Source: Escherichia coli (lineage in GTDB: Bacteria; Pseudomonadota; Gammaproteobacteria; Enterobacterales; Enterobacteriaceae). From it: 64,000 nt of DNA. The translations under genes and the position numbers were made by a program. Of this stretch, positions 2,843 to 11,617 are shown piece after piece. Below the pieces are notes generated by a model that was not told the origin of the DNA, did not search any database, and worked only from the letters and a program-made list of their open reading frames with translations. The stretch lies in NCBI RefSeq assembly GCF_003334765.1, contig NZ_QOWT01000020.1. One strand, given 5' to 3'. Within the stretch, counting starts at the first letter, position 1. Every line of letters starts with the position of its first letter.

Positions 2843-4891
2843 ATGAGTCGTAAACAACTGGCGCTATTCGAACCAACACTTGTCGTTCAGGCGCTGAAAG
2901 AAGCGGTGAAAAAATTAAACCCGCAGGCGCAATGGCGCAATCCGGTGATGTTTATCGTCTGGATCGGCAGTCTGCTGACCACCTGTATTAGCATCGCGAT
3001 GGCAAGCGGTGCGATGCCCGGCAATGCGCTGTTTAGCGCGGCCATTAGCGGTTGGCTGTGGATCACCGTACTGTTCGCTAATTTCGCCGAGGCGCTGGCA
3101 GAAGGCCGCAGTAAAGCGCAGGCCAACAGTCTGAAAGGGGTGAAAAAAACTGCCTTTGCCCGCAAGCTGCGTGAGCCGAAATATGGCGCTGCGGCGGACA
3201 AAGTTCCTGCCGACCAACTTCGTAAAGGCGATATCGTACTGGTAGAAGCTGGCGATATTATCCCCTGCGATGGTGAAGTTATTGAAGGGGGTGCATCGGT
3301 CGATGAAAGCGCCATCACCGGGGAATCGGCACCGGTGATCCGTGAATCCGGCGGCGATTTTGCCTCCGTCACCGGCGGCACGCGTATTCTTTCTGACTGG
3401 CTGGTGATTGAGTGTAGCGTTAACCCCGGCGAGACATTTCTGGATCGGATGATCGCGATGGTGGAAGGCGCACAGCGACGCAAAACGCCGAACGAAATTG
3501 CCCTGACCATTCTGCTGATTGCCCTGACTATCGTCTTTTTACTGGCAACCGCCACGCTGTGGCCGTTTTCCGCGTGGGGCGGTAATGCAGTCAGCGTAAC
3601 GGTACTGGTGGCGCTGCTGGTCTGTCTGATCCCAACCACTATTGGCGGCCTGTTGTCAGCGATCGGCGTCGCCGGGATGAGCCGGATGCTAGGCGCGAAT
3701 GTGATTGCCACCAGCGGACGTGCAGTTGAAGCGGCAGGTGACGTTGACGTTCTGCTACTGGATAAAACCGGCACCATCACACTCGGTAACCGTCAGGCGT
3801 CGGAGTTTATCCCCGCGCAGGGCGTGGATGAAAAAACGCTGGCTGACGCCGCACAACTGGCTTCGCTGGCTGATGAAACGCCGGAAGGCCGCAGTATTGT
3901 GATCCTCGCCAAGCAGCGTTTTAACCTGCGCGAGCGCGATGTGCAGTCGCTCCATGCCACCTTTGTACCGTTTACTGCGCAAAGCCGGATGAGCGGGATC
4001 AACATCGACAACCGCATGATCCGTAAAGGTTCTGTCGATGCCATTCGTCGCCATGTTGAGGCTAACGGTGGTCACTTCCCTACCGATGTTGATCAAAAAG
4101 TCGATCAGGTTGCGCGTCAGGGAGCCACGCCGCTGGTGGTGGTGGAAGGTTCTCGTGTGCTGGGCGTTATTGCGCTGAAAGATATCGTCAAAGGCGGTAT
4201 TAAAGAGCGCTTCGCCCAGCTGCGCAAAATGGGCATTAAAACGGTGATGATTACCGGCGATAACCGTCTGACTGCCGCCGCGATTGCTGCGGAAGCGGGT
4301 GTCGATGATTTTCTCGCCGAAGCGACACCGGAGGCCAAGCTGGCATTGATCCGTCAGTATCAGGCGGAAGGTCGTTTGGTAGCGATGACCGGCGACGGCA
4401 CCAACGATGCTCCGGCGCTGGCGCAGGCAGATGTCGCGGTGGCGATGAACTCCGGCACCCAGGCGGCGAAAGAGGCGGGCAATATGGTCGATCTCGACTC
4501 TAACCCGACCAAGTTGATCGAGGTGGTGCACATTGGCAAACAGATGCTGATGACCCGTGGCTCGCTGACCACCTTCAGCATTGCCAACGATGTGGCGAAA
4601 TACTTCGCCATTATTCCGGCGGCATTCGCGGCAACGTATCCGCAGTTAAATGCGCTGAACATCATGTGCCTGCATTCGCCCGACTCCGCAATCCTCAGTG
4701 CGGTGATTTTCAACGCCTTGATTATCGTCTTTTTGATTCCCCTGGCGTTAAAAGGCGTGAGTTATAAACCGCTTACCGCTTCTGCCATGTTGCGCCGTAA
4801 CTTATGGATTTACGGTCTGGGTGGGCTGCTGGTGCCGTTTATCGGTATCAAAGTCATTGATTTACTGCTGACCGTTTGCGGTCTGGTGTGA
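2843..4891 (+). CDS. kdpB: K+-transporting P-type ATPase catalytic subunit B
   Basis: 682-aa [25 protein letters not shown]... with P-type ATPase motifs (DKTGT at the phosphorylation site, TGDN, GDGTND). Confidence 0.96.
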
Positions 4892-8149: not shown

Positions 8150-8823
8150 CAAACGTTCTGATTGTTGAAGATGAACAGGCTATTCGTCGCTTTCTGCGCA
8201 CGGCGCTGGAGGGCGACGGGATGCGCGTCTTTGAGGCCGAAACGCTGCAACGCGGCTTGCTGGAAGCGGCAACCCGTAAGCCAGATTTGATTATTCTCGA
8301 TCTCGGCCTGCCCGATGGTGATGGGATTGAGTTTATCCGCGACCTGCGCCAGTGGAGCGCGGTGCCGGTGATTGTGCTTTCCGCACGCAGCGAAGAGAGC
8401 GACAAAATCGCCGCGCTGGATGCCGGAGCGGATGATTATCTGAGTAAGCCGTTTGGCATTGGCGAATTGCAGGCCCGTCTGCGCGTCGCATTACGCCGCC
8501 ACTCTGCCACCACCGCGCCCGATCCGCTGGTAAAATTTTCCGATGTTACCGTCGATTTAGCCGCCCGCGTGATTCACCGGGGTGAGGAAGAGGTGCATCT
8601 CACACCAATTGAGTTCCGCCTGCTGGCGGTGCTGCTCAACAATGCCGGAAAAGTACTCACCCAGCGCCAGCTCCTTAACCAGGTGTGGGGGCCAAACGCG
8701 GTCGAACACAGTCACTATTTGCGTATTTATATGGGACATCTGCGACAAAAACTGGAACAGGATCCCGCCCGCCCACGCCATTTCATTACTGAAACCGGTA
8801 TTGGCTATCGGTTTATGCTTTGA
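8146..8823 (+). CDS. kdpE: Response regulator KdpE (OmpR family)
   Basis: 225-aa protein [17 protein letters not shown]...; ATGTGA overlap with the kdpD stop. Confidence 0.96.
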   Translation: MTNVLIVEDEQAIRRFLRTALEGDGMRVFEAETLQRGLLEAATRKPDLIILDLGLPDGDGIEFIRDLRQWSAVPVIVLSARSEESDKIAALDAGADDYLSKPFGIGELQARLRVALRRHSATTAPDPLVKFSDVTVDLAARVIHRGEEEVHLTPIEFRLLAVLLNNAGKVLTQRQLLNQVWGPNAVEHSHYLRIYMGHLRQKLEQDPARPRHFITETGIGYRFML

Positions 8824-8860
8824 ATATTAATTTTAATACAGCCTGCCTTTTATTAATTAA

Positions 8861-8888
8861 AGCCGTAATAATAAATACGGCTTTTTAT
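8861..8888 (+). terminator. Intrinsic terminator after kdpE
   Basis: Stem agccgta/tacggct with a 9-nt loop, followed by ttttat. Confidence 0.55.
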
Positions 8889-9038
8889 CTTAAACAACAC
8901 ACAAAAATAACAATTCAATATTTTATATTACTGAGTAAAAAGCTCATCATTAAATAAATTAAGATTGATCATTTTTTATTGATCACCTTCACAGTTCAAC
9001 CGTATTTCCTGGATAGAATATCTTCACCTTCATTCACA

Positions 9039-9296
9039 TCAGGAAAGGTAAATTAAATGGAAAATAACAGCCGCACTATGCCCCATATAAGGCGGACAAC
9101 TCATATTATGAAGTTTGCTCATCGCAATAGCTTCGACTTTCACTTCTTCAATGCCCGTTAGTCTACCGACTAAGGGCACTTCAGCGTACAGGTCTTCCTG
9201 ACTCTCTGTATTACAGGCATATGCCTGTATTCCGCAGTGCTCATTCTCTGTTAACCCTTGTATTATCAGCCACCTGACTGGTAAGGGTTTCTGCAT
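9039..9296 (-). other. 85-aa ORF antisense to the speFL leader (ybfK-style annotation); probably not a real gene
   Basis: Track ORF MQKPLPVRWLIIQG...; it fully overlaps speFL and the speF leader on the opposite strand and has no convincing RBS. Confidence 0.2.
9057..9161 (+). CDS. speFL: Ornithine-sensing leader (arrest) peptide SpeFL, 34 aa
   Basis: ATG 9057 preceded by aggaaagg; translation MENNSRTMPHIRRTTHIMKFAHRNSFDFHFFNAR, then TAG; sits about 260 nt upstream of speF. Confidence 0.8.
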   Translation: MENNSRTMPHIRRTTHIMKFAHRNSFDFHFFNAR

Positions 9297-9418
9297 TCTG
9301 AAAAAAGCAATCTACCTGATTTATTTATCAGCGGGGTAACTTTGCTTTTTTCCGGCACGATCGATTTCTCATTCGAGAAATTGAGGACCTGCTATTACCT
9401 AAAATAAAGAGATGAAAA

Positions 9419-11617
9419 ATGTCAAAATTAAAAATTGCGGTTAGTGATTCTTGCCCGGACTGTTTTACCACGCAGCGAGAATGTATCTACATTAATGAAA
9501 GTCGTAATATCGATGTGGCGGCAATAGTTTTATCGCTCAACGATGTTACATGCGGAAAACTCGATGAAATCGATGCCACGGGTTATGGCATCCCGGTATT
9601 TATTGCTACTGAAAATCAAGAACGTGTACCCGCAGAGTATTTGCCCCGTATTTCGGGTGTCTTTGAGAATTGCGAATCGCGACGAGAATTTTATGGTCGC
9701 CAGTTAGAAACCGCTGCCAGCCATTATGAAACTCAACTGCGCCCACCTTTCTTCCGCGCACTGGTCGATTATGTCAATCAAGGTAACAGCGCGTTTGATT
9801 GCCCTGGTCATCAGGGCGGCGAATTTTTCCGTCGCCATCCGGCGGGGAATCAGTTTGTGGAATACTTTGGTGAGGCGCTGTTCCGTGCCGACTTGTGCAA
9901 CGCCGACGTAGCGATGGGCGATCTGCTGATTCACGAAGGCGCGCCATGCATTGCACAGCAACATGCGGCAAAAGTGTTTAATGCCGATAAAACCTACTTC
10001 GTTTTAAATGGCACTTCATCTTCTAACAAAGTGGTTTTAAACGCCCTGCTAACACCGGGTGATCTGGTGCTGTTTGATCGCAATAACCACAAATCTAACC
10101 ACCACGGAGCGTTGCTACAGGCTGGTGCAACACCGGTTTATCTGGAAACGGCACGTAACCCGTATGGCTTTATCGGTGGCATTGATGCGCACTGTTTTGA
10201 AGAAAGTTACCTGCGTGAGCTGATCGCGGAAGTCGCACCGCAGCGGGCAAAAGAGGCTCGTCCTTTCCGCCTCGCTGTGATTCAGTTAGGCACCTACGAC
10301 GGTACGATTTATAACGCCCGCCAAGTGGTGGATAAAATTGGTCATCTGTGTGACTACATCCTGTTTGACTCAGCATGGGTCGGCTATGAACAGTTTATTC
10401 CGATGATGGCGGACTGTTCGCCGCTGTTGCTGGATCTTAATGAGAACGATCCGGGTATTCTGGTTACGCAATCTGTGCATAAACAACAGGCTGGTTTTTC
10501 TCAGACTTCACAAATTCATAAAAAAGACAGCCACATCAAAGGGCAACAGCGTTATGTACCGCACAAACGCATGAACAACGCCTTTATGATGCACGCCTCC
10601 ACCAGCCCGTTCTATCCGCTGTTTGCCGCACTGGATATCAACGCCAAAATGCATGAAGGTGTCAGCGGTCGTAATATGTGGATGGATTGTGTGGTAAATG
10701 GCATTAATGCCCGCAAACTGATCCTCGATAACTGTCAGCATATTCGTCCGTTCGTACCTGAACTGGTGGATGGTAAACCCTGGCAGTCGTATGAAACAGC
10801 GCAAATTGCGGTTGATCTGCGCTTCTTCCAGTTTGTACCAGGGGAACACTGGCATTCTTTTGAAGGCTATGCAGAGAATCAATACTTTGTCGATCCATGC
10901 AAACTGTTGCTGACAACCCCAGGTATTGATGCACGTAACGGCGAATATGAAGCGTTCGGTGTACCCGCGACGATTCTTGCTAACTTCCTGCGCGAAAATG
11001 GCGTAGTGCCGGAAAAATGCGATCTTAACTCCATCCTCTTCCTGCTGACTCCGGCAGAAGATATGGCCAAACTTCAGCAACTTGTTGCCCTGCTGGTACG
11101 CTTCGAAAAACTGCTTGAGTCCGACGCGCCATTAGCAGAAGTGCTACCTTCCATCTACAAACAGCATGAAGAGCGCTACGCCGGTTATACCCTGCGTCAG
11201 TTGTGTCAGGAAATGCATGATTTGTATGCCCGCCACAACGTGAAACAACTGCAAAAAGAGATGTTCCGTAAGGAGCACTTCCCACGCGTCAGCATGAATC
11301 CGCAAGAAGCCAACTACGCCTATTTACGCGGTGAAGTGGAACTGGTTCGTCTGCCGGATGCAGAAGGCCGTATCGCTGCCGAAGGTGCGCTTCCTTATCC
11401 TCCGGGTGTGCTGTGTGTTGTTCCGGGTGAAATCTGGGGTGGTGCTGTTCTGCGTTACTTCAGCGCTCTGGAAGAAGGGATCAACCTGCTGCCAGGTTTT
11501 GCACCGGAGCTGCAGGGTGTCTATATCGAAGAACATGATGGTCGTAAGCAAGTTTGGTGCTATGTCATCAAGCCTCGTGATGCGCAAAGCACCCTGTTGA
11601 AAGGGGAAAAATTATGA
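9419..11617 (+). CDS. speF: Inducible ornithine decarboxylase
   Basis: 732-aa ORF MSKLKIAVSDSCPDCF...; fold-III PLP decarboxylase. Confidence 0.95.
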   Translation: MSKLKIAVSDSCPDCFTTQRECIYINESRNIDVAAIVLSLNDVTCGKLDEIDATGYGIPVFIATENQERVPAEYLPRISGVFENCESRREFYGRQLETAASHYETQLRPPFFRALVDYVNQGNSAFDCPGHQGGEFFRRHPAGNQFVEYFGEALFRADLCNADVAMGDLLIHEGAPCIAQQHAAKVFNADKTYFVLNGTSSSNKVVLNALLTPGDLVLFDRNNHKSNHHGALLQAGATPVYLETARNPYGFIGGIDAHCFEESYLRELIAEVAPQRAKEARPFRLAVIQLGTYDGTIYNARQVVDKIGHLCDYILFDSAWVGYEQFIPMMADCSPLLLDLNENDPGILVTQSVHKQQAGFSQTSQIHKKDSHIKGQQRYVPHKRMNNAFMMHASTSPFYPLFAALDINAKMHEGVSGRNMWMDCVVNGINARKLILDNCQHIRPFVPELVDGKPWQSYETAQIAVDLRFFQFVPGEHWHSFEGYAENQYFVDPCKLLLTTPGIDARNGEYEAFGVPATILANFLRENGVVPEKCDLNSILFLLTPAEDMAKLQQLVALLVRFEKLLESDAPLAEVLPSIYKQHEERYAGYTLRQLCQEMHDLYARHNVKQLQKEMFRKEHFPRVSMNPQEANYAYLRGEVELVRLPDAEGRIAAEGALPYPPGVLCVVPGEIWGGAVLRYFSALEEGINLLPGFAPELQGVYIEEHDGRKQVWCYVIKPRDAQSTLLKGEKL

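Follow-up and report, generated by a model that had tools for sequence, protein, structure and literature searches.

The gap between kdpE and speF is, on our reading, the E. coli K-12-type control region of speF, in which ornithine-dependent arrest of the ribosome on the leader peptide SpeFL relieves Rho-dependent termination; we put the probability of this reading at about 0.95. The small open reading frame (ORF) inside the gap is the known SpeFL leader itself, not merely a relative of it, and has already been characterised and annotated. Positions refer to the window, the whole stretch of 64,000 nucleotides of E. coli DNA that was analysed, unless another locus is named.

Layout of the locus and identity of speFL

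The stop codon of kdpE, the upstream neighbour, lies at 8823, and the intergenic gap that follows (8824-9418) is 595 bp long, has a GC content of 35.8% as against about 50-60% in the flanking genes, and was found by sequence comparison to be identical to MG1655 over its entire length. Downstream of the gap is the speF-potE operon (9419-12933, plus strand), in which speF (9419-11617, ATG at 9419-9421) was assigned by NCBIfam TIGR04301 with 1435 bits and potE (11614-12933) by NCBIfam NF007938 with 857 bits. The sequence-only reading had taken the gap as one AT-rich leader of roughly 600 bp. Its length and AT-richness hold, but not all of it is leader, because a terminator of kdpE lies at its start, a promoter region of 25% GC follows, and transcription probably starts just before speFL, which leaves a leader of about 393 nt. 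The GC content is uneven inside the gap, with 24.8% in 8824-9025 and 41.5% in 9026-9418. The intrinsic terminator of kdpE, located by a terminator scan at 8859-8892 on the plus strand, starts 36 nt past the kdpE stop codon and consists of a 9-bp stem, AAAGCCGTA/TACGGCTTT (8859-8884), followed by a T-run; it is no part of the speF leader.

The speFL ORF (9057-9161, plus strand) has 34 codons followed by TAG, and its product is MENNSRTMPHIRRTTHIMKFAHRNSFDFHFFNAR. Its ribosome-binding site (RBS), AGGAAAGGT (9041-9049), contains an AGGT that ends 7 nt before the ATG, and 257 nt separate the speFL stop codon from the speF ATG, which is the published value for the speFL-speF spacer (10.1101/604074). 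A 34-codon ORF with a good RBS about 260 nt upstream of speF, as the earlier reading had described, is thus present, and its naming as SpeFL is borne out as well: over all 34 residues the peptide showed no difference from the chain named SpeFL in the ribosome complexes PDB 6TBV and 6TC3 (E = 7.6e-20), Pfam PF10940 ('Leader peptide SpeFL') matched residues 8-33 (E = 4.6e-5), and the MG1655 annotation of the same DNA is speFL (b4803). Given the full identity to the PDB chain and the identity of all 595 bp to MG1655, this ORF is not a chance ORF. A scan of the SpeFL peptide against NCBIfam gave no matching model. The further claim that routine gene calling misses this small ORF is out of date, since RefSeq/PGAP, UniProt and Pfam PF10940 all carry SpeFL; PGAP names it 'leader peptide SpeFL' in most E. 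coli genomes, and the UniProt and NCBI names agree.

The ornithine-sensor motif HIRRXXH is present at codons 10-16 (9084-9104), and the peptide reads P9-H10-I11-R12-R13-T14-T15-H16 around it. The rare codons ATA-AGG-CGG occupy 9087-9095, with the Arg pair AGG and CGG at 9090-9095, and the phenylalanines of the effector domain (F20, F26, F28, F30 and F31) are all found at the expected positions. Arrest and relief of Rho termination were demonstrated on exactly this peptide sequence (10.1101/604074). In that study, ornithine arrested ribosomes when codon 33 or 34 occupied the P site, as seen from toeprints that depended on its dose and resisted puromycin, and bicyclomycin rendered a speF'-lacZ fusion constitutive. 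Cryo-EM placed one L-ornithine between the 23S rRNA (C462-U464, A751, A788 and A789) and Pro9, Arg12 and Arg13 of an N-terminal hairpin of the peptide, and HIRRXXH (residues 10-16) was essential for arrest. The Phe-rich C-terminal part (F20, F26, F28, F30, F31) compacts, and Asn32 pushes U2585 so that RF1 is blocked (10.1101/604074). In Salmonella, mutants of the start codon of orf34 or with premature stops in it produced a 157-nt Rho-terminated RNA (PMC6386406).

We compared the locus with 80 speF loci from other species. A speFL-type ORF was found upstream at 60 of these and was exactly 34 codons long in 54. At 58 of the 60 loci the Arg12 codon was a rare one (AGG, AGA, CGA or CGG), and the stop codon was TAG in 33 and TAA in 27. 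By motif search, no HxRRxxH uORF was found within 1.2 kb upstream of the speF-like genes of Sutterella, other Burkholderiales and Pseudomonas (12 loci), or of the second speF-like copies of Yersinia and Edaphovirga (four loci); these genes may be of the speC type or otherwise regulated.

The conserved Arg codons could also be read as the sensor of another signal. In the model of Ben-Zvi et al., arginine supply would be the main signal, and the speed of the ribosome at the rare Arg codons 12 and 13 would pick the fold of the leader, one fold being degraded by RNase G. It was shown in Salmonella that arginine lowers speF-lacZ expression, an effect that requires RNase G as well as the Arg codons at positions 12 and 13 (PMC6386406), and both the AGG and CGG codons here and the rarity of the Arg12 codon among relatives suit this model. 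However, the conservation of R12 and R13 is explicable without arginine sensing, since both are direct residues of the ornithine pocket and R-to-K or R-to-A changes abolish arrest (10.1101/604074), and induction by ornithine is strong and peptide-specific. The arginine layer is, moreover, known from Salmonella, where the spacer is about 379 nt as against 257 nt in E. coli, and the two models do not exclude each other but describe layers of a single system. We therefore consider it unlikely that arginine supply is the main signal, and ornithine-dependent arrest remains our reading of the speFL codons.

The antisense frame and selection on the sense frame

An ORF of 85 codons on the opposite strand covers the DNA of speFL at 9039-9296 (minus strand), as the sequence-only reading, which called it 'ybfK-style', had stated. 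Its codons are in exact register with those of speFL: the complement of its stop codon is at 9039-9041, and the first base of speFL, 9057, is 18 nt further on. Because of this exact register, the first codon positions of the antisense frame fall on the wobble positions of speFL, which are the most variable sites, and sense coding in register leaves the reverse frame poor in stop codons. The pairwise differences among the speFL ORFs at the first, second and third codon positions were 8773 : 6482 : 19750, the signature expected of purifying selection on the amino-acid sequence of SpeFL in the sense frame.

It is very improbable that the antisense ORF is a real, young protein-coding gene, such that genes would overlap on both strands here. 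An intact copy of the ORF exists in K-12-type E. coli and in Shigella, its cluster has 469 members, and a variant with 98% identity retains it with one amino-acid change. The members of the cluster in the database are all named only 'hypothetical protein', with no link to the historical b4590 'ybfK', and a fitness survey lists YbfK as important though its expression was less than 1 ppm (10.1101/038851). The comparison between species speaks against a gene. At a nucleotide identity of 75%, the sense peptides were 78% identical and the antisense translations only 51%; the antisense frame carried a stop inside the overlap in 20 of 53 distinct sequences; and the length of the ATG-started antisense ORF ranged from 9 to 101 codons across species. 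In the O157 allele of E. coli itself, 1-nt and 51-nt indels fall in the region, and the antisense ORF has only 45 codons and a different N-terminus. No purine-rich Shine-Dalgarno sequence was found upstream of the antisense ATG and no Pfam or NCBIfam family for its product, and the current MG1655 record, from which the ORF has been dropped, holds no gene at this place. Neither the length nor the frame of the ORF is conserved, as would be expected of a coding gene, its variation is concentrated at its first codon positions rather than its third, and the fitness signal of YbfK would be explained more simply by insertions that disrupt the speF leader.

Taken together, these comparisons agree with the earlier suspicion of an annotation artefact, and the antisense ORF is most likely a by-product of the sense coding frame rather than a gene. 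It should stay unannotated, and the phenotypes once given to it are probably due to a damaged speF leader.

Promoter, leader RNA and the route to Rho control

Upstream of speFL, we found a palindrome, ATTGATCACCTTCACA (8978-8993), with the TGA-N6-TCA core of the CRP/FNR family. The core was present in 53 of 61 speFL loci, where shuffled sequences lead one to expect 4% per locus, and in 46 of these 53 occurrences the centre of the palindrome lay 66-73 nt upstream of the speFL ATG. Relative to the start site discussed below, the centre falls at about -40.5, a position typical of class-II activation by regulators of the CRP/FNR type. The palindrome is thus a candidate class-II site for an activator of this family. 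A literature search for a link of CRP to the speF promoter returned nothing relevant, and no published regulator was found for the palindrome; weak binding of NtrC was reported by one paper as the first direct regulatory link. In the promoter alignment of the 61 loci, a -10-like hexamer, TAGAAT (9014-9019, plus strand), is conserved as A.AAT, and a -35 element is not recognisable. A generic sigma-70 scan gave no complete promoter, which fits a promoter that depends on an activator.

The start of transcription in Salmonella is 31 nt upstream of the AUG of orf34 (PMC6386406). This distance and the conserved spacing from the -10 element to the ATG would place the start site here at A9026 on the plus strand. 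The transcribed leader probably starts near 9026 and is about 393 nt long, since three features point to the same position: the distance in Salmonella, the TAGAAT, which is spaced to match it, and a covarying hairpin that begins exactly at 9026.

The minimum-energy fold of the leader (9026-9450) has a z score of -3.8. As an RNAalifold consensus of 31 Enterobacteriaceae leaders recovered only 31 pairs, the E. coli minimum-energy structure was tested on the alignment instead. With this fold, 77.6% of the cells were paired, as against 38-47% when the partners were slid, and the covariation score was 0.182 as against about 0.08 in the slid controls, although a fold taken from one member of an alignment tends to beat slid controls. 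At the 5' terminus, the fold has a hairpin (9026-9049, plus strand) in which the ACCUU of the mRNA 5' end pairs with the Shine-Dalgarno AAGGU of speFL. Two-sided changes were seen in six of its eight pairs across the 31 species (helix 1), and this hairpin could set the translation of speFL or the stability of the mRNA.

A second hairpin (9152-9178, plus strand; -15.2 kcal/mol, z = -4.0) includes the end of speFL, from codon 33 to the stop. It corresponds to the pause hairpin described previously (10.1101/604074), and in relatives 77-88% of its cells are paired, with some two-sided changes (helices 7 and 8). Overlapping its end, a pattern match to the pause consensus G-11 G-10 ... Y-1 G+1 occurs at 9175-9186 on the plus strand, by which the RNA would end at 9185, at about +160 relative to the proposed start; the short transcript of Salmonella is 157 nt. 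The supplements of Adams et al. on 3' ends, searched for a 3' end or start site of speFL, contained no speFL entry. Their 2021 supplement does list a bicyclomycin-sensitive antisense signal at MG1655 720082 (+), equivalent to about 9797 on the minus strand of the window and inside speF, which indicates Rho-suppressed antisense transcription toward the leader.

In the minimum-energy fold, a long-range helix joins codons 27-31 of speFL (5' arm, 9135-9148, plus strand) to 9407-9423 (3' arm, plus strand), where it covers the Shine-Dalgarno AAGAGA of speF (9407-9412) and the start codon. Across the 31 species, 84.8% of the cells of this helix were paired (helix 6), and no two-sided covariation was found in the alignment, as is expected of a helix with a coding arm and an arm that contains the Shine-Dalgarno sequence. 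The equivalent helix of Salmonella, which pairs the 3' part of the uORF with the speF RBS, was confirmed by compensatory mutations (PMC6386406). Between speFL and the speF RBS is a structured spacer (9183-9393, plus strand) with conserved hairpins at 9212-9229, 9253-9289, 9300-9352 and 9361-9384. The terminator scan also marked a terminator-like hairpin with a T-run at 9330-9352 (plus strand), 67 nt before speF, and around it two conserved arms, an A-run and a T-run, pair 9300-9310 with 9342-9352 (helices 16-19); the Salmonella study described its leader as having no intrinsic terminator (PMC6386406).

Such a strongly structured and conserved leader could in principle sense a metabolite in the manner of a riboswitch, with speFL as a mere translated spacer that couples the ribosome to the polymerase, and an unrelated RNA element named 'speF' exists in Rfam for other bacteria. 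This is the least probable of the readings considered and has already been refuted by frameshift and point-mutant toeprints, as a double-frameshifted speFL template with nearly the same RNA lost ornithine-dependent stalling and ornithine was seen bound in the tunnel (10.1101/604074), while the amino-acid sequence of SpeFL, and not the RNA alone, is under purifying selection, and an Rfam scan to E values up to 1 gave no leader family, with only a chance snoRNA match, whose 21.9 bits fall below the gathering score of 60.

The composition of the leader does not make a Rho loading site obvious, as C only modestly exceeds G. Across 9057-9185 there are 35 C and 23 G, a weak bias for a rut site overlapping speFL, and the 60-nt windows around 9116-9205 reach 30-32% C as against 17-20% G.

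From these features and the published work, the following sequence of events is very likely, with peptide-mediated ornithine sensing at its centre. An AT-rich and probably activator-dependent promoter behind the kdpE terminator would produce the leader from near 9026, which encodes SpeFL. On the translating ribosome, as was shown for exactly this sequence (10.1101/604074), a single L-ornithine is caught inside the exit tunnel between the 23S rRNA and the HIRRXXH hairpin at the N-terminus of the nascent peptide. The Phe-rich C-terminus then compacts and U2585 is displaced, so that RF1 fails at the TAG and translation halts while codon 34 occupies the P site. When ornithine is lacking, the ribosome would terminate and depart, Rho would load on the bared RNA, and it would stop a polymerase paused just past the hairpin at 9152-9178, with a predicted site near 9185. 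When ornithine is available, stalled and queued ribosomes would mask the Rho loading region, and transcription would proceed into speF-potE. As a second layer, which was shown in Salmonella and would apply to E. coli by analogy, ribosomes on the 3' part of speFL would open the helix 9135-9148/9407-9423 and free the speF RBS.

Alleles of the region and comparison with known systems

Of 5426 complete genomes of E. coli, only 1709 had the K-12-type leader, and the others carry a divergent allele. The possibility that speF is missing from the E. coli genomes that gave no megablast match was rejected, as those genomes carry the divergent allele. The divergent leader (locus L086, E. coli O157:H7, 3025-3713) is 74% identical to 8824-9418 of the window. 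Its spacer between speFL and speF is 310 nt as against 257 nt, with 51 nt extra, and its SpeFL has the substitutions S5N and T7L. Between the two alleles, speF is 93% identical, compared with 97% for kdpE. The divergent E. coli leader allele resembles that of E. albertii.

We also noticed a 145-nt direct repeat with 90% identity at 8680-8824 and 13015-13159: a second copy of the kdpE 3' end follows directly after potE, where the annotation gives a truncated winged-helix pseudogene (ybfI in MG1655). The two copies, 4335 bp apart from start to start, flank the speFL-speF-potE cassette, which suggests insertion or allelic replacement of this cassette.

Two IS1 events were seen at the locus in other strains. 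In one strain (locus L085, NZ_AP022177.1, 773-1539), an IS1A lies within speFL at codons 11-13, and its 9-bp target duplication, ATAAGGCGG, is exactly the codons of Ile11-Arg12-Arg13 (9087-9095 in the window). The split speFL is a natural knock-out and is annotated there as a 32-aa 'hypothetical protein'. Another strain (locus L083, NZ_AP027759.1, 3045-3815) has an IS1B after kdpE and has lost the leader together with speFL and the 5' end of speF, and the annotation there lists speF as a pseudogene.

The recognition of speFL in this DNA adds nothing new, since it is the K-12 sequence solved by cryo-EM and is already annotated. The promoter site, the 5' hairpin and the structure of the alleles are the only parts not obviously covered in the literature searched. 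That 8978-8993 is a class-II CRP/FNR site, that the 5' hairpin occludes the RBS of speFL, and that the K-12-type cassette replaced an older allele and left the duplicated kdpE 3' end is, as a combined reading, tentative, and we rate its chances at somewhat below even. If the palindrome and the 5' hairpin are functional, the induction of speF would add a transcription-factor signal and control of speFL translation to the ornithine signal. Two modest leads on the transcriptional control of speF that can be tested are the palindrome and the difference between the E. coli alleles.

SpeFL itself is a textbook-grade case of the ribosome as a small-molecule sensor, and it governs putrescine synthesis and adaptation to acid stress in enteric bacteria. 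The element analysed here is the same as SpeFL/orf34 of Herrero del Valle et al. (10.1101/604074) and Ben-Zvi et al. (PMC6386406), with which it shares the 257-nt spacer, the TAG stop codon, the AGG-CGG codons, the pause hairpin and the downstream speF-potE, although its spacer to speF is shorter than the roughly 379 nt that follow Salmonella orf34. The MdtU uORF of mdtJI in E. coli lies, like SpeFL, in a polyamine-related leader with premature Rho termination, and polyamine-dependent stalling was proposed for it (PMC7815308). Unlike SpeFL, whose mechanism has been resolved structurally, it is another peptide with spermidine as its ligand. The 'speF' leader RNA of alphaproteobacteria in Rfam also lies upstream of an ornithine decarboxylase gene and is an RNA motif that is not known to contain a SpeFL-type uORF. 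TnaC of the E. coli tnaCAB operon, with which SpeFL has been compared (10.1101/604074), acts in a similar way: this short leader peptide captures a free amino acid in the tunnel, blocks release at the stop codon and prevents Rho termination. However, the two are unrelated in sequence, and TnaC binds tryptophan at another site; the pocket for ornithine is made by the 23S rRNA together with the N-terminal hairpin of SpeFL, and the speF leader adds a helix that hides the RBS of speF.
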